A DNA stretch of 62,097 nucleotides, the filler included, from Nitrospirae bacterium CG2_30_53_67 (GTDB lineage Bacteria > CG2-30-53-67), in the NCBI GenBank assembly GCA_001873285.1. It is 3 parts of 3 records of this genome, joined end to end, with 100 filler letters (N's around TTAATTAATTAA, not from the genome) between each part and the next. Parts side by side here need not be neighbours in the genome. Positions count along the whole stretch, not along the records: positions 1 to 26,870 come from MNYV01000055.1; 2 more parts are not named here. One strand, given 5' to 3'. The notes beneath the pieces were generated by a model. That model searched no databases. It was given only the letters and a program-made list of their open reading frames with translations, and was not told the origin of the DNA. Position 1 is the stretch's first letter, and each line of letters opens with the position of its first letter. This document shows positions 41-62,093 of the stretch, piece by piece. A program made the position numbers and the translations under genes.

Positions 41-66
41 GCCTGTCCTCCGACTGGATCGGGGGA
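41..66 (-). repeat. Free-standing copy of a 25-26 bp hairpin unit
   Basis: GCCTGTCCTCCGACTGGATCGGGGGA is the exact reverse complement of 107-132. Confidence 0.85.
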
Positions 67-94: not shown

Positions 95-227
95 GTCATT
101 GTCCGGTCCCCCGATCCAGTCGGAGGACAGGCCCGACCGGACAATCCACCCTTCGACAGGCTCAGGGTGACAATTGTCATGGTGAGCTTGTCGAACCATG
201 GATTCCCCGATCGAGTCGGGGAATGAC
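95..227. repeat. Composite palindromic REP/MITE-like element (GTCATT...AATGAC ends), copy 1
   Basis: Ends GTCATTGTCCGG and CGGGGAATGAC; internal inverted TTCGACA(G/A)GCTCA units; near-identical inverted copy at 5790-5925. Confidence 0.85.
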
Positions 228-5789: not shown

Positions 5790-5925
5790 GTCATTCCACG
5801 ACCCTCCGATCGGGGGATTGGAGGGCATGCTTGATCGGGGAATCCATGGTTCGACAAGCTCACCATGACAATTGTCACCCTGAGCCTGTCGAAGGGTGGA
5901 TTGTCCGGTCGAGCCGGACAATGAC
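5790..5925. repeat. Composite palindromic REP/MITE-like element, copy 2 (inverted relative to 95-227)
   Basis: Core is the reverse complement of the core of 95-227; carries a different hairpin insert at 5802-5829. Confidence 0.85.
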
Positions 5926-12232: not shown

Positions 12233-13291
12233 TCAAAAAAAACGGCCAAGGTGTTCCAGAAACTCCGTATTTTCCTCAGGCATTCCCACGGTCATCCGGA
12301 GACACCCTTGAAGCGGTCCCGATTGGTCCAGGTTCCGGACGAGGATGCCGGCCTTGAGCAGGTTCCGGTAGAGTTCGTAAGCGTCTTGCGTCCGGAAGAG
12401 GATGAAGTTTGCCTGTGAAGGATAGACCTTGATCTCTTGGATGCTGCACATGGATTGGAAGAGGCGCTCCCGTTCTTCAATGATCATCCGGATCTGTTTC
12501 TTAATCGTTTCGGGACGGCTGAGCAGGGCCGAGGCGGCGGCCTGAGAAAAAGTATTGATGTTGTATGGCAGCCGGACCTTCTCCAATTCACTGATCACCT
12601 CTTGGCTGCTGATGAGGATCCCGACACGAAGGGCCGCCATGCCGATCTTTGACAAGGTCCTTAAAATGACCAGGTTCGGAATGGTCTGAAGATATTTCAT
12701 GAAACCCGGATGATCGGAGAAGTCGATATAGGCCTCGTCCACCACCACGATCGCCTGCGTTTCCTTCAGGATTCTGAGCAGGGTCTCATCGGCAAACCTG
12801 TTTCCCGTGGGGTTGTTGGGTGAGGCCAGGAAGATGATCCTCGGGGAGCGCTCTTGGGCCGTTTTTAGAAACAATTCGGGATTGATCTGGAAATGGCCGT
12901 CGAGAGGGACGGGAATGGCCGTCTGGCCCTGAGCCTTGGCGATGATGCCGTACATGGAAAAAGTCGGAACGGGGAAAAGGATCCCGCTGTTTTGGCCGCT
13001 GAATGCCGTGATCAAATACCCGATCAGTTCGTCGGACCCGTTTCCGAGCATCAGGTTCCGGGGTTCCGTGTGCAGGTATTCGGAAATCCGTTTCTTTAAT
13101 GTCACGGCCCCGGAATCCGGATAGCGGTTGAAATGCATGCGCCGAAGTTCTTCTGAGATTTCCTGCAGGATCTCGAAAGGAGGGTCAAATGGGCTTTCAT
13201 TGGCGTCCATCTTGACTCGTGACGGGGTCTCAACAACGGAATAGGGTCTCAGTGTCCGGATCTCAGGCCGAAGCAGATCAAGTGGATTCAT
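12233..13291 (-). CDS. hisC: Histidinol-phosphate aminotransferase
   Basis: NESPF, GNGSDELI, SPNNPTG, VVDEAY, RTLSKIGMAALRVG. Confidence 0.95.
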   Translation of the reverse strand: MNPLDLLRPEIRTLRPYSVVETPSRVKMDANESPFDPPFEILQEISEELRRMHFNRYPDSGAVTLKKRISEYLHTEPRNLMLGNGSDELIGYLITAFSGQNSGILFPVPTFSMYGIIAKAQGQTAIPVPLDGHFQINPELFLKTAQERSPRIIFLASPNNPTGNRFADETLLRILKETQAIVVVDEAYIDFSDHPGFMKYLQTIPNLVILRTLSKIGMAALRVGILISSQEVISELEKVRLPYNINTFSQAAASALLSRPETIKKQIRMIIEERERLFQSMCSIQEIKVYPSQANFILFRTQDAYELYRNLLKAGILVRNLDQSGPLQGCLRMTVGMPEENTEFLEHLGRFF

Positions 13292-14601
13292 AGACCTCCG
13301 CCCTCGTTTTTCAGCCGCTTGTTTCGGAGACTGACGGCACGGGCATGTCCCTGAAGCCCTTCGAGTTCTGCAAGGCGGATGGTATCCTCGGCTACGAGCC
13401 GGAATCCTCTCCGGGTAAAAGAGATCAGGCTGGATCGCTTATAGAAGTCTCCCACAGAGAGCGGAGAGAAGAACCGGGATGTTCCGCCGGTTGGAAGGAC
13501 ATGGTTCGGTCCTGCCATGTAGTCGCCGATGGGTTCCGGAGAATAGGGGCCCAGGAAGATTGCCCCGGCATTCTCAATCCGTTCCAGGATTTCAGACGGG
13601 TTTTCAGTCATGATCTCGAGGTGCTCCGGGCCGACGGCATTCGCTACCTGTGCGCCTTCGACGAGGTCTTTTACAAGGATCAGGGTCCCGTAATTTTGAA
13701 GCGCCTTTCCCGCGATGTCCCGGCGGGGCAATGTGCCAAGCTGCTCTTTTATGGCCTTCTGAACGGACCGGATCAAGTCCCTGGAAGTGGTGACCAGGAC
13801 TGTCCAGGCCATCTCATCGTGTTCTGCCTGGGAAAGCATATCAGAGGCGATGAAATCGGGATCGGCCGTATGATCCGCGAGGACCAGGATTTCGCTCGGC
13901 CCTGCGATCATGTCAATGTCCACGATGCCGAAGACCATCTTTTTGGCCAGGGCGACATAGATGTTCCCCGGCCCCACGATCTTGTCCACCTTGGGGATGG
14001 TTTCCGTCCCATAGGCCAAGGCGGCGACGGCCTGCGCCCCTCCCACACGGAAGATCCGGTCTATGCCGGCGATCCGGGCCGCAGCGAGGACATAGGGGTT
14101 GGCCTCTCCGCCGGGTGTGGGGCTGACCATGACCAATTCCCTGACTCCGGCCACCCTGGCCGGGATGGCGTTCATCAGCACGGATGATGGATAAGATGCT
14201 TTACCGCCGGGGACATAGATCCCGACCCTTTGAAGCGGGCGGACAATCTGGCCGAGCGTCACGCCATCCTGGTCCGTGAATGTCCAGGTCTGATCTTTCT
14301 GTTTCTCGTGAAAGGCCAGGATCCGCGCGGCTGAGGCACGGAGTGAGGCCAAGGCCTGGGGGTCGACCCTCTCCTCGGATCGTTCGATCTCTTTCCGAGC
14401 GATCTCCACGTTGGTGCGGTCAAGGGTGACCCGGTCAAATTTACGGGTCAACTCGAACAGGGCGGGATCTCCCTCCGCGCGGATCCGGCCGAGTATCTTC
14501 TCAACGACTTTGACGGTCTTCTTGTCGACCTCGCCCGCCCGTTGCTTGAAGCCGAGGACCTCCTCTTCGAAACCGGATGCTTTAGAATCAAGAATTCTCA
14601 T
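13288..14601 (-). CDS. hisD: Histidinol dehydrogenase
   Basis: GIYVPGG, GGAQAVAALAYG, IDMIAGPSE, SQAEHD, GPNHVLPT. Confidence 0.97.
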   Translation of the reverse strand: MRILDSKASGFEEEVLGFKQRAGEVDKKTVKVVEKILGRIRAEGDPALFELTRKFDRVTLDRTNVEIARKEIERSEERVDPQALASLRASAARILAFHEKQKDQTWTFTDQDGVTLGQIVRPLQRVGIYVPGGKASYPSSVLMNAIPARVAGVRELVMVSPTPGGEANPYVLAAARIAGIDRIFRVGGAQAVAALAYGTETIPKVDKIVGPGNIYVALAKKMVFGIVDIDMIAGPSEILVLADHTADPDFIASDMLSQAEHDEMAWTVLVTTSRDLIRSVQKAIKEQLGTLPRRDIAGKALQNYGTLILVKDLVEGAQVANAVGPEHLEIMTENPSEILERIENAGAIFLGPYSPEPIGDYMAGPNHVLPTGGTSRFFSPLSVGDFYKRSSLISFTRRGFRLVAEDTIRLAELEGLQGHARAVSLRNKRLKNEGGGL

Positions 14602-14629
14602 GGCCTACACGGGTATCGTTAGAATTTAA

Positions 14630-14988
14630 GGTTCTTCTCCCATTTAGTGGGTAAAAAGGGTTACGCTTCGCGTTCCCCGCTTTTCTCTGTTTTTGCCGTC
14701 TGCGACGGCTACTACACTAATGTATCTTGGGGTCGAGGGTTGAAGAACCATAGGGTTATAGGAGTCAAGGGGTCAAGGATTCAAGTGAAATACTGATACC
14801 GGTAAACCGAGTACAAGAACGCAAGCAAAATCTCCAGAGAAAAACACTTGAACCCTTGAACCCTTGAACCCTTGAACCCTTGAACCCTAGGACCCTCGGC
14901 CCCTTATGTTTTTAGCACTTCACTTGACCCCTGGAATCCTTGACCCCTTCACCCCTGATGTTTTCACACACTCTTTTGGAGATGATCT
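14630..14988. mobile_element. MITE family A, longest copy, with 8-bp tandem repeats
   Basis: Imperfect terminal inverted repeats GGTTCTTCTCCCATTTAGTGGGTAAAAA / TTTTCACACACTCTTTTGGAGATGATCT; (CTTGAACC)x5 at 14847-14886; related copies at 17307-17347, 19917-20041, 44707-44963. Confidence 0.8.
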
Positions 14989-14992
14989 GAAT

Positions 14993-15901
14993 TTAAAAGG
15001 CTGCTGGGTCTTGTCTGCGGTCCGCAGGGATCAGCCCATACTCATTCATGACTGCACTCAGTCTGTTTCTGTTTACCTCTCCCATCCTGCAGAGGGGAAG
15101 GCGGAACTCATCCTCGCATTTCCCCATGAGATGGAGAGCGGTTTTGACCGGGATCGGATTGGTCTCGAAAAACATGGCTTCCATGAGCCTGAGCAGTTCA
15201 TAATGCAGAGACCGCGCCTGGTCCGGGTCCCCGTCAAAAAAGGCCCGGACCATCTCCGACATCTTTCCGGGCGCCACATTGGCAACCACGGAGATAACGC
15301 CTTGGCCCCCGATGTCCAGAGTGGGAAGGGCCGTGAAGTCGTCCCCGGAGAGGACCACGAAATCTTCACGGCACAACTCAATAATTTTGCTGATCTGACG
15401 GAGGTCGGCCGATGCTTCCTTGATCCCCGTGATTTCACGGATACCCGACAGGCGGGCCACGGTTTCGGGAAGGATGTTCAGAGCGGTCCTGCCGGGCACA
15501 TTGTAGAGAATCAGGGGGAAGGAGGTCTCTTGGGCTACTTTTTTGTAATGTTGGTAGATCCCCTCCTGCGTGGGTTTATTGTAATAGGGAGAGATCAGCA
15601 GGGCCCCGTCCGCCCCGGCCTTTTTTGCCGCCCTCGTCAGTTCGATGGTCTCAGCCGTGGAATTGGACCCTGTCCCCGCCAGTACCGGGATCCTGCGGTT
15701 CACGGCCTGTACGGTGATCCGCACGACCTCCTTGTGTTCCTCATGCGTCAGTGTGGCCGATTCACCGGTGGTGCCGCAGGGGACGATCCCGTCGACCTTC
15801 TCTTCAATGCAAAAATGGATCAGCGCCCTGAGGGCCTCTTCATCTATCTTGCCGTCTTTTTTAAAGGGCGTAATGATGGCAGGCAGCGTACCTTGAAACA
15901 T
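14993..15901 (-). CDS. dapA: 4-hydroxy-tetrahydrodipicolinate synthase
   Basis: AIITPF, CGTTGESATL, PYYNKP, LYNVPGRT, GIKEAS, ETNPIPVK. Confidence 0.97.
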   Translation of the reverse strand: MFQGTLPAIITPFKKDGKIDEEALRALIHFCIEEKVDGIVPCGTTGESATLTHEEHKEVVRITVQAVNRRIPVLAGTGSNSTAETIELTRAAKKAGADGALLISPYYNKPTQEGIYQHYKKVAQETSFPLILYNVPGRTALNILPETVARLSGIREITGIKEASADLRQISKIIELCREDFVVLSGDDFTALPTLDIGGQGVISVVANVAPGKMSEMVRAFFDGDPDQARSLHYELLRLMEAMFFETNPIPVKTALHLMGKCEDEFRLPLCRMGEVNRNRLSAVMNEYGLIPADRRQDPAAF

Positions 15902-17306: not shown

Positions 17307-17347
17307 TTGACCCCTTATGGTTTCACCCACGCTTTTGGAGATGATCT
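17307..17347. repeat. Solo end of MITE family A directly upstream of the dapF start codon
   Basis: TTGACCCCTTATGGTTTCACCCACGCTTTTGGAGATGATCT resembles the right end of 14630-14988 and 44707-44963. Confidence 0.7.
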
Positions 17348-19916: not shown

Positions 19917-20041
19917 AGATCATCTCCAAAATAGTGGGTGAAAACATCAGGGGTCAAGGGGTCAAGGATTCCAGGGTTCACTTGACCCCTTGAACCCTGG
20001 AATCCTCGAACCCTTTTTACCCACTATATGGGAGAAGAACC
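19917..20041. mobile_element. MITE family A, short copy in inverted orientation
   Basis: AGATCATCTCCAAAATAGTGGGTGAAAA ... TTTTTACCCACTATATGGGAGAAGAACC with internal inverted 8-bp repeat arrays. Confidence 0.8.
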
Positions 20042-20070
20042 GTAAATAAGAGCCATTGTTAAGGAGCTTC

Positions 20071-44249: not shown

Positions 44250-44260
44250 GCCGGAACTTA

Positions 44261-44442
44261 GTGGTCCTATTCGTAAATACGGTCGCATTCGAGGGTCGTA
44301 GGGCGGCCTCATCTGCGTTCCGCTCCTTGCGGCGTACCAGAGGGTACGCCTCAGTCGCGCGCCTTGATAAGACCGCCCTACGACCCTCTACCGGTAAACC
44401 GAGTACAAGTCGGTACGTTACCCTATTTACGAACAGGACCAC
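44261..44442. mobile_element. MITE family B, copy 1 (carries a 21-bp insert)
   Basis: TIRs GTGGTCCTATTCGTAAATA / TATTTACGAACAGGACCAC; TTA on both flanks; near-identical copy at 61866-62028. Confidence 0.88.
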
Positions 44443-44459
44443 TTAGGAAAGGTGTGATC

Positions 44460-44518: not shown

Positions 44519-44618
44519 NNNNNNNNNNNNNNNNNNNNNNNNNNNNNNNNNNNNNNNNNNNNTTAATTAATTAANNNNNNNNNNNNNNNNNNNNNNNNNN
44601 NNNNNNNNNNNNNNNNNN
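44519..44618. other. Artificial contig linker
   Basis: 100-nt N block with TTAATTAATTAA at 44563-44574. Confidence 0.95.
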
Positions 44619-44681
44619 ACGGACCTCCGGCGCCCGGATATCCTGATTCACCCGCTCTTTCTGGTTGTCTCTTTTTTTTAT
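44619..44681 (-). CDS. infC: Translation initiation factor IF-3, 5' fragment with ATA start (truncated by contig end)
   Basis: AAGGAGGTG then ATA-KKRDNQKERVNQDIRAPEVR, like the IF3 RINxxIRAxEVR motif; downstream of thrS; absent from the ORF track. Confidence 0.85.
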
Positions 44682-44706
44682 ACAATCACCTCCTTCAATA
44701 AATTAA

Positions 44707-44963
44707 GGTTCTTCTCCTCTACGAGCCCTCGGCCATATAGTGGGTAAGAAGGGGTCAAGGATTCCAGGGGTCAAGGGGTCAAGTGAGATACTGAAATGCA
44801 ATCAAAATCTCCAGAAAAAAACACTGGAACCCTTGACCCTTGATGTTTTCAGCACTTCACTTGACCCCTTGAATCCTTGACCCCTCGGACCCTCAAGTCT
44901 TGAAAAGCACTTCACTTGACCCCTTGAACCCTTATGTTTTCACCCGCTCTTTTGGAGATGACC
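44707..44963. mobile_element. MITE family A copy between thrS and infC
   Basis: Same ends and 8-bp repeat arrays as 14630-14988; 16-bp insert at 44718-44733. Confidence 0.8.
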
Positions 44964-44995
44964 CACCGGCAATATCCCATTCCCGGACAAAAAGA

Positions 44996-47058: not shown

Positions 47059-47135
47059 TGGTAGGCGGTACTGGAGTTGAACCAGCGACCTCCACGATGT
47101 CAACGTGGCGCTCTAACCAACTGAGCTAACCGCCT
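47059..47135 (-). tRNA. tRNA-Val(GAC)
   Basis: AGGCGGTTAGCTCAGTTGGTTAGAGCG-CCACG-TTGACAT-CGTGG-AGGTCGCTGGTTCAACTCCAGT-ACCGCCT-ACCA cloverleaf. Confidence 0.97.
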
Positions 47136-61460: not shown

Positions 61461-61865
61461 ATGAAATGGTTCATGATTTTTTTTTCATGTATGATGATCT
61501 CATTTGGGCTTTCCGCTTCATTGTTTGCAGACGACAATCAGAATGCCGTCACCTTGATTAACAGCAACGATTACCCGCCCAACAACCTGGTGCTTGCCGT
61601 TGATAAACTGGGCCGCGGGGTCCTCAATACCGCCTTCGGTGTGGTGGAGATTCCAAAGCAGTCCATCAAAAGGTCCATTGACACCGACAGTTCCTATGGT
61701 TACGTTTCCGGTTTCTTTATAGGAATCGGATATTTCGTCCTCAGGGAACTCTCCGGTGTTTATGAGATCGTGACGTTCCCCTTCCCGGTTCCTGCCGGCT
61801 ATGCGCCTGTGATTGACCCCATCCTGGGATACAAGCCGAAAATCATACCCAAAATTTCCGACTAA
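61461..61865 (+). CDS. Exosortase system-associated protein (TIGR04073-like)
   Basis: Signal peptide; KLGRGVLNTAFGVVEIPK...RELSGVYEIVTFPFPVP. Confidence 0.8.
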   Translation: MKWFMIFFSCMMISFGLSASLFADDNQNAVTLINSNDYPPNNLVLAVDKLGRGVLNTAFGVVEIPKQSIKRSIDTDSSYGYVSGFFIGIGYFVLRELSGVYEIVTFPFPVPAGYAPVIDPILGYKPKIIPKISD

Positions 61866-62028
61866 GTGGCCCTATTCGTAAATACGGTCGCATTCGAGTG
61901 CCGTAGGGCGGCCTCATCTGCGTTCCGCTCCTTGCGGCGTACCACAGTGGGTACACCTCAGTCGCGCGCCTTGATGAGACCACCCTACGACCCTCTCGGT
62001 ACGTTACCATATTTACGAACAGGACCAC
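61866..62028. mobile_element. MITE family B, copy 2 (empty of the 21-bp insert)
   Basis: Same TIRs as 44261-44442; TAA on both flanks, the left one being the stop codon of the upstream gene. Confidence 0.88.
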
Positions 62029-62051
62029 TAAGTATGGAAGGTCTCACTCAA

Positions 62052-62093
62052 GTTCACCCCGTTAGAGGCCTTAAGGCCTCTAACGGGGTGAAC
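62052..62093. repeat. Perfect 42-bp palindrome
   Basis: GTTCACCCCGTTAGAGGCCTT|AAGGCCTCTAACGGGGTGAAC. Confidence 0.9.

Follow-up and report, generated by a model that had tools for sequence, protein, structure and literature searches.

A 21-nucleotide hairpin module inserted into unrelated repeat elements of Nitrospirae bacterium CG2_30_53_67 and related genomes

How very short hairpin repeats, such as single repetitive extragenic palindromes (REP singlets) and the small dispersed repeats (SDRs) of cyanobacteria, are copied around genomes is still unsolved. The repeats SDR1–8 of Nostocaceae were reportedly set out by Elhai, Kato, Cousins, Lindblad and Costa in 2008 (Genome Res 18:1484) as units of 21–27 nucleotides (nt) nested in minitransposons and tandem short repeats; they are said to share a hairpin fold with compensatory changes, to have had an unknown mobiliser and to have been accounted for by a proposed RNA intermediate. 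Insertion sequences of the IS200/IS605 family have a different subterminal hairpin at each end and enter DNA 3′ of a fixed target of four or five nucleotides. PMC3116915, PMC5861425 and PMC4390886 all cite the 2008 study of Nostocaceae repeats, and the last of them places SDR5 precisely between nt 3 and 4 of HIP1. For REPs, PMC3333891 describes an Escherichia coli enzyme, TnpA-REP, that requires single-stranded DNA and a mismatch in the stem, cuts with low specificity on both sides of the REP and carries out strand transfer. Here we follow a 21-nt hairpin unit, TACCGGTAAACCGAGTACAAG, through a stretch of 62,097 nt, filler included, from Nitrospirae bacterium CG2_30_53_67 (GCA_001873285.1), the whole of which we call the window, and through related genomes and metagenomes.

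We find 21-nt units that have entered, entire and without target duplication, at least five unrelated contexts. Filled and empty alleles exist for five unrelated classes of site: the centre of one miniature inverted-repeat transposable element (MITE A), two sites in another (MITE B), the loop of a REP-like hairpin, and a gene with an in-frame insertion of seven codons. An earlier, sequence-only reading of the window had proposed a discrete unit inserted precisely and without duplication into unrelated hosts; that proposal now extends from two hosts to these five classes and to subtypes with compensatory stems, and we consider it very probable that the 21-mer is a discrete inserted mobile module. 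Its family offers unusually clean material for the copying problem, with exact 21-nt bounds, five kinds of filled and empty pairs (one of them in a gene), covariation that marks the recognised bases and a short list of RAYT-type genes.

Filled and empty sites in unrelated hosts

The 21-mer occurs exactly twice in the window, both times on the plus strand (0 expected by chance), with no further match at up to three mismatches and no match at all in 100 shuffles. One copy lies in MITE A and the other in MITE B, and each element has a sister copy in the window that lacks it (Table 1). Filled MITE A reads ...gaaatactga-(21 nt)-aacgcaagc against ...gagatactga/aatgcaatc in its sister, and filled MITE B reads ...cgaccctc-(21 nt)-tcggtacg against cgaccctc/tcggtacg; the boundaries are exact in MITE A and carry a 1-nt (T) ambiguity in MITE B. 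Neither a target-site duplication nor a terminal inverted repeat was found at any 21-mer junction examined in the two elements. The two exact copies, their empty sisters and the lack of target duplication, all reported by the sequence-only reading, thus hold up under exact and mismatch searches and in alignments of filled with empty forms.

Our census rests on two related metagenome-assembled genomes (MAGs), G001 and G002, and on metagenome loci. The exact 21-mer was found at three loci in these two species-representative genomes and at 65 metagenome loci, many of which turned up in two or more samples. Adding the two window sites gives 70 sequences, which represent 28 distinct loci: the MITE A site accounts for 15, the right arm of MITE B for 11 and its left arm for one, and the last is an unrelated coding match (L055) inside a DDE transposase gene on a GC-rich unrelated contig, which we rejected as a copy of the module (~0.5 chance matches are estimated for the collection).

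That the 21-mer is an adapter, an assembly error or a chimera is scarcely credible. The window does carry a ttaattaattaa linker bordered by runs of N (44519–44619) just past the filled MITE B, which marks the window as a scaffold of joined contigs, and the sequence to the right of the linker may not be adjacent in the genome. Yet independent metagenome assemblies span both window junctions (L009, L029, L030 and L069, at 97.7–98.7% identity over 784–1244 aligned nt; L031 and L052, at 100% over 730 nt), so that an artefact is excluded for practical purposes. The 68 further loci that carry the 21-mer and the relatives with compensatory changes in other genomes speak in the same sense, and viral contigs gave 0 matches to the unit.

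MITE A and MITE B are true repeat families, since G001 alone has ~22 MITE A cores, 2 of them filled, and ~25 full MITE B copies, none of them filled. Across the census, 24 of 43 distinct MITE A cores are empty, and alignment shows the module to be absent from both sites in 23 of 36 distinct MITE B loci. The arms of MITE A are built from tandem octamers (GGGTCAAG / CTTGAACC), and in the predicted fold the 21-mer falls in the apical loop region of its hairpin. MITE B has a second site, in the left arm (tgccgt/agggcgg), where the 21-mer is present in L018, L026 and L036, which represent one distinct locus.

The REP-like hairpin provides a further host. In related genomes its filled form reads ATTGTCCGG-TC(A/G)(A/G)G-(21 nt)-CCGGACAAT, with subtype 3 of the module (defined below) in the loop. 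The window's empty form lies within a larger repeat that is filled in G001, and the filled homologues L198 and L206 share its 5′ flank. Ten matches to the outer hairpin in G001 and G002 comprise 2 that are empty, 5 with the subtype-3 module, 2 with a 25-nt unit and 1 with a 50-nt nested unit. Insertions have used this loop repeatedly, since another copy in the window carries a different insert at the same site (Table 1); this insert, of 25 nt, matches in inverted orientation a sequence ~35 nt downstream of the hairpin (~42–66, minus strand) and looks like a product of local template switching or palindrome building.

The remaining class lies in a gene. A subtype-2 unit at G001:C144 is antisense within a 451-codon open reading frame (ORF) with an HTH_8 domain, a conserved regulator gene. 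The protein P0001, 89% identical to the G001 protein, keeps the seven extra residues, whereas P0002, a 66% identical homologue, aligns on both sides and lacks exactly those seven; a real gene has therefore taken up the 21 nt without loss of frame, and annotators should be aware that seven-codon insertions in proteins can be repeat-derived. Further copies at G001:C51 and G002:C85 lie in other contexts, with no empty allele available.

Table 1 Position of the module copies and their host elements in the window
Feature	Position	Strand	Description
21-nt module, subtype 1	14797–14817	+	Exact match; central unpaired region of MITE A
21-nt module, subtype 1	44389–44409	+	Exact match; right arm of MITE B
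MITE A, filled	14626–14987 (ends approximate)	+	~360-nt imperfect palindrome; self-BLAST
MITE A, empty	44701–44965 (ends approximate)	+	Empty site between 44794 and 44795
MITE B, filled	44256–44446	+	191-nt long palindrome; DNA fold −55.4 kcal/mol, z −9.2
MITE B, empty	61861–62033	+	Empty site between 61995 and 61996
REP-like outer hairpin, empty	5900–5922	+	ATTGTCCGG-TCGAG-CCGGACAAT; empty loop site between 5913 and 5914; fold −9.7 kcal/mol, z −3.95
REP-like outer hairpin, filled	97–146	−	Different 25-nt insert in the loop, at the same loop site as 5913/5914

The filled MITE A of the window sits between hisD (13288–14601, minus strand) and a DHDPS-family gene (14993–15901, minus strand; Pfam assignments). 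Orthologous genes beside both MITE loci are ~85% identical between G001 and the window. At the G001 locus orthologous to the filled MITE A there is no MITE A at all, so the element has changed place after the divergence of the two lineages; for the filled MITE B, the corresponding contigs of G001 break off at the repeat. Elsewhere in the window there are a short MITE A remnant (19920–20047) and a right-end fragment (17307–17344), neither of which includes the 21-mer site. One otherwise empty MITE A core, L114 (G001:C2), has a single extra T exactly at that site (ACTGAtAACGC), the T being the first base of the module; it may be a footprint left by excision or simply an indel. In all three copies inspected (window 14601–14660, at hisD; L001; L002), a minus-strand start codon directly adjoins the left end of MITE A, ggttcttctcccat(a/t)tagtgggtaaaaaggg, and as the reading of this end on the gene strand, GGGAGAAGAACC, resembles a ribosome-binding site, MITE A may supply expression signals.

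Both MITEs host other small units. A small palindrome, ttCACCCCGTTAGAG...CTCTAACGGGGTGaa, lies at 62053–62092 of the window, and a related 35-nt copy in G001 (L002, L123) is nested in MITE A, where it precedes the 21-mer site by 12 nt. This palindrome is a second kind of module hosted by MITE A. MITE B has further inserts (L018, L025, L062 and L032): in its left arm a 24-nt unit, gcctgcctgtgccatggcagacag, at about the mirror position of the 21-mer site on the right, and in its right arm a 41-nt related hairpin that adjoins the 21-mer. Its internal-loop region appears to be a hot spot for insertion. Beside the REP-like element (~200–227, minus strand, and 5833–5849, plus strand) stands a hairpin, gtcATTCCCcgactcgatcgGGGAATcc, that resembles Neisseria dRS3/NTS-type repeats as portrayed in PMC11893778.

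A family of hairpin units and its spread

All subtypes of the module share a 13-nt core, CCGGTAAACCGAG, which has 11 exact matches in G001 and 4 in G002, against ~0.1 per genome expected by chance on our own estimate. The module consists of a 17-nt hairpin and a 4-nt tail, CA(A/G)G. Subtype 1, found in MITE A and MITE B, is TA-core-TA-CAAG; subtype 2 is CA-core-TG-CAAG, one variant of which shows a C·A mismatch and an altered loop; and subtype 3 is CC-core-GG-CA(A/G)G, that is, CCCCGGTAAACCGAGGGCA(A/G)G. The inner stem (CCGG/CCG-G), the TAAA loop, the single bulged A and the CARG tail are fixed, and the two outer base pairs vary and do so jointly (TA/TA, CA/TG and CC/GG, with TC/GA in another genome). 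The hairpin drawn by the sequence-only reading does exist, as a 6-bp stem with one bulged A and a TAAA loop, although its fold in isolation is weak.

The exact subtype-3 21-mer was found at 14 loci in six species-representative genomes: G001, G002, a Candidatus Erginobacter MAG (Candidatus Auribacterota), two unclassified MAGs and one MAG labelled Candidatus Absconditabacterales. Apart from G001 and G002, all of these genomes except the Absconditabacterales MAG (three of four) carry it inside another palindrome, which reads aaccgcggatttaa, the unit, and then ctggatt...ataatccgcggtt. A rare and patchy family of this kind fits horizontal movement better than an ancient conserved function.

Looser searches added little. 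Outside the known genomes, the degenerate pattern YACCGGTAWACCGAGTRCAAG gave only two coding matches of GyrA/ParC type (AAYRYTECK), which we put down to chance. A broad scan with CCGGTAAACCGAGNNCARG gave at least 120 matches; among the matches listed, 24 of 120 have both outer pairs in Watson–Crick form, where ~7.5 would be expected; the six known genomes supply 17 of the 24. Among the others, several recur as one identical sequence in unrelated genera, so that they may be coding matches. A permissive Rfam scan (E up to 0.1) matched none of 13 module loci, and a literature search for the core returned no match. At gathering level, Rfam matched only two features in the window, a tRNA gene (47062–47135, minus strand) and a group II intron D1–D4 domain (RF02005, 26960–27162, minus strand, 67.6 bits). 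A separate and abundant short hairpin repeat, ACTTTACGGCTTCGTAAAAAGTCCATC, as seen at 1440–1469 of L007, has at least 35 matches in G001.

Insertion events, candidate enzymes and rival explanations

To count insertions we used a maximum-likelihood tree of the 36 MITE B loci from which the insert columns had been removed. The free tree has 6 state changes in all, with 5–7 for the right-arm group over bootstrap trees, and by tree path the filled MITE B of the window has as its nearest relative the empty copy in the same window (94% identity). When three genomes were searched with mismatches allowed, the MITE-borne units were letter-perfect in five of five cases and their MITE flanks variable. 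On the simplest reading true insertions were few, perhaps 5–10 in the data seen, most copies probably having multiplied with their host MITEs; the place of the filled MITE B nearest an empty copy of the same window and the letter-perfect units are two points to the contrary.

The account that we tentatively favour is that of a non-coding hairpin module, a very small mobile DNA of a REP-like or SDR-like kind, that has been inserted a few times by a RAYT/HUH type of joining and has otherwise spread passively. Single-strand cut-and-join chemistry is suggested by the one hairpin with its exact boundaries, by the absence of duplications and terminal repeats and by the preference for hosts that are palindromes. 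Such joining, the least certain step, would be carried out by a trans-acting Y1/HUH enzyme of RAYT type that would read the hairpin loop and bulge, make one cut at the base of the hairpin and another behind the CARG tail, and transfer the unit into single-stranded DNA exposed by extruded palindromes. MITEs and REP loops would be the usual hosts because they would offer such targets. Both do serve as landing pads for smaller modules, and this accounts for some of the nested mosaic repeats of uncultured groundwater bacteria. After entry into MITE A and MITE B, the module would mostly have been copied passively by transposition of the MITEs, possibly also by gene conversion. A conserved bulge and an absent target motif would fit an enzyme like TnpA-REP, because that enzyme needs an irregular stem and cuts with low specificity. 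A bolder version, which we think rather unlikely, holds that the 21-nt unit, hairpin plus 4-nt tail, is a complete minimal substrate for single-strand transposition by an HUH enzyme acting in trans and reading loop and bulge, one that moves between phyla, colonises the single-stranded parts of mobile elements and lands in frame in genes; were it true, the module would be the smallest defined mobile DNA outside cyanobacteria and the first with clean filled and empty pairs and directly testable enzyme candidates.

RAYT/HUH enzymes are plausible and the leading candidates for the mobilising agent, if rather less likely than not to be it. Matches to Y1_Tnp are present in all six module-bearing genomes (6, 5, 2, 20, 9 and 1), several of the genes are RAYT-like, and two exceed the NF047646 cutoff of 80 bits (82.3 and 94.8). 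Beyond the stop codon of the first of these two, at G002:C511, and on that side only, a subtype-3 module follows after 442 nt. This RAYT-like gene (L150, 1471–2260) has an in-frame TAG after codon 146, its frame running on for ~85 codons before a ~60-nt tandem duplication, and to judge from its sequence it may be decaying. In G005 a 666-codon gene separates the sole module from a Y1 ORF ~2 kb away, and a perfect-stem relative, CCCCGGTAAACCGGGG, is within ~1 kb of another Y1 gene. By our own estimate, the Poisson probability of two such proximities is ~0.04, a value that is suggestive only.

A good deal weighs against this account. Searching the window by tblastn with seven Y1 proteins revealed no Y1/HUH gene, as the sequence-only reading had also said, the one marginal match being the helix-turn-helix of an NtrC-type regulator. 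The HUH-type mobiliser that it went on to suppose fares less well, since RAYT-type genes found in 6 of 6 module genomes turn up with the same search in 6 of 14 control genomes. Among ~29 exact-core sites in the six genomes, one is within 0.5 kb of a Y1 gene and one ~2 kb away, and the closer of the two, at G002:C511, lies in a 182-nt repeat that is also found at a RAYT-free locus of G001. The subtype-1 hairpin alone is weak as DNA (−1.7 kcal/mol, z −0.71; 36 of 200 shuffles fold at least as well), so that the case for a hairpin rests on covariation among subtypes rather than on energy. Insertion flanks have no sequence in common (left flanks CTGA, CCTC, CCGT, CAAG/CGAG/CGGG, TTAA and others), and beside the insertions there is no conserved target or cleavage motif, in keeping with what had been said of the two window sites; target choice of the IS200/IS605 type is thus not seen. 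A rule that the target always lies in a loop fits the REP loop and the apex of MITE A and was rejected on the left-arm site of MITE B, which is predicted to lie within a stem. The module also departs from typical REPs: it lacks the 5′ GTAG or CGTC tag as defined in PMC3733652 (subtypes 1 and 3 have neither, and subtype 2 followed by TAG gives GTAG on the 3′ side), its copies are all single, with no inverted doublets of the REPIN or BIME kind, and there are ~4–11 of them per genome (11 exact cores in G001, 4 in G002) as against hundreds of REPs. Finally, the MITE B tree has little resolution, with good support for 6 of its 33 branches; a tree that unites the 12 MITE B loci filled in the right arm in a single clade is not rejected by an approximately unbiased (AU) test (p 0.34); and no locus was found to be polymorphic for the module between close strains, which gives no sign of current activity.

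The AU result would suit an explanation by a few old events, in which the module entered each host once, later spread passively through MITE copies or gene conversion and is now a passenger. The constant position of the module within each MITE, the tie of each subtype to its own host elements, and the mobility of MITE A itself, absent as a whole from the orthologous G001 locus, all agree with it. We nevertheless think it unlikely, as at least five separate and precise 21-nt insertions would still be needed, and with them a mobilising process, and as both the 6 state changes of the free tree, with the window's filled copy next to its own empty one, and the letter-perfect units amid varying flanks, in copies found without bias, tell against it.

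Two further explanations replace the joining step and seem improbable. The module might spread as a small hairpin RNA that is copied by reverse transcription and then patched into DNA; it is like the SDRs, for which such a route was reportedly proposed, in its size, its nesting and its compensatory changes, and the group II intron domain noted above implies reverse transcriptase activity in the genome. Against such RNA-mediated spread, the module has no poly-A, no primer-like feature and no association with a reverse transcriptase gene, its few stem variants show no asymmetry of the G-U type, and no Rfam family covers it. Alternatively, in templated patch repair or template switching, a polymerase would copy a short hairpin-prone stretch from an ectopic template into breaks in palindromes. 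The hosts are indeed long, breakage-prone palindromes, the window's REP loop holds a 25-nt unit that repeats nearby sequence in inverted form, and the MITE B flank TCGGTAC is complementary to the start of the module. This idea has as little probability as the preceding one: exact 21-nt boundaries recur in five unrelated contexts, the MITE A junctions show no microhomology, and a conserved loop and bulge on a covarying stem argue for recognition of structure rather than accidental copying. We therefore return to the hairpin module with few insertions, passive spread and RAYT/HUH joining as the best explanation overall, on the tentative terms given above.

Comparison with known systems

The module shares features with several described systems. 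According to PMC11893778, NTS/SRM repeats are 28-nt hairpins that occur across phyla and are recognised as single-stranded DNA by Ssn, a small trans-acting GIY-YIG nuclease; the module is likewise a short hairpin repeat found across phyla, whereas the sequence of these repeats is unrelated to it and Ssn has no known joining activity. Classical DDE-type MITEs differ in that the module has neither terminal inverted repeats nor target-site duplications at any junction. With IS200/IS605 elements and palindrome-associated transposable elements (PATEs) it has in common the logic of single-strand hairpins and the lack of terminal inverted repeats and target-site duplications; unlike IS200/IS605, it has one hairpin, and its left flanks share nothing.

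The nearest model for a mechanism is the REP/RAYT system, whose REPs are extragenic imperfect palindromes of 20–40 bp in high copy number. The module resembles them as a short imperfect palindrome with a conserved stem irregularity and no target-site duplication that would be mobilised in trans, in hosts with RAYT-type genes (PMC3116915 and PMC3333891). In addition to the departures weighed above, among which the end tag and the doublets concern defining features of REPs, no RAYT gene has the module on both sides, as in a REPtron, and the module inserts into the interior of other repeats; one of its copies is intragenic, and REPs inside genes are known from PMC3733652.

The closest described parallel is that of the SDRs of Nostocaceae. 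The module too is a 21-nt precise insertion when set against empty sister sequences, without duplication and in five classes of site; it is nested in MITE A, with its tandem octamer arms, in MITE B and in a REP-like loop; and its subtypes keep a common hairpin fold by compensatory outer pairs, even if the energy of subtype 1 alone is not significant. It differs in sequence and in phyla, its hosts not being cyanobacteria (the SDR set was compared by description only), as well as in its lower copy number, in a subtype that is letter-identical in distant lineages and in its one in-frame copy in a gene. To put it forward as an undescribed system, as the sequence-only reading did, was thus an overstatement, REP/RAYT biology being established and the small dispersed repeats of Nostocaceae having been described earlier. 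We rate the module as joining a known but mechanistically unsolved kind, that of REPs and cyanobacterial SDRs: it is one of the smallest mobile DNA units seen, and similarly tiny repeats are already known from cyanobacteria.

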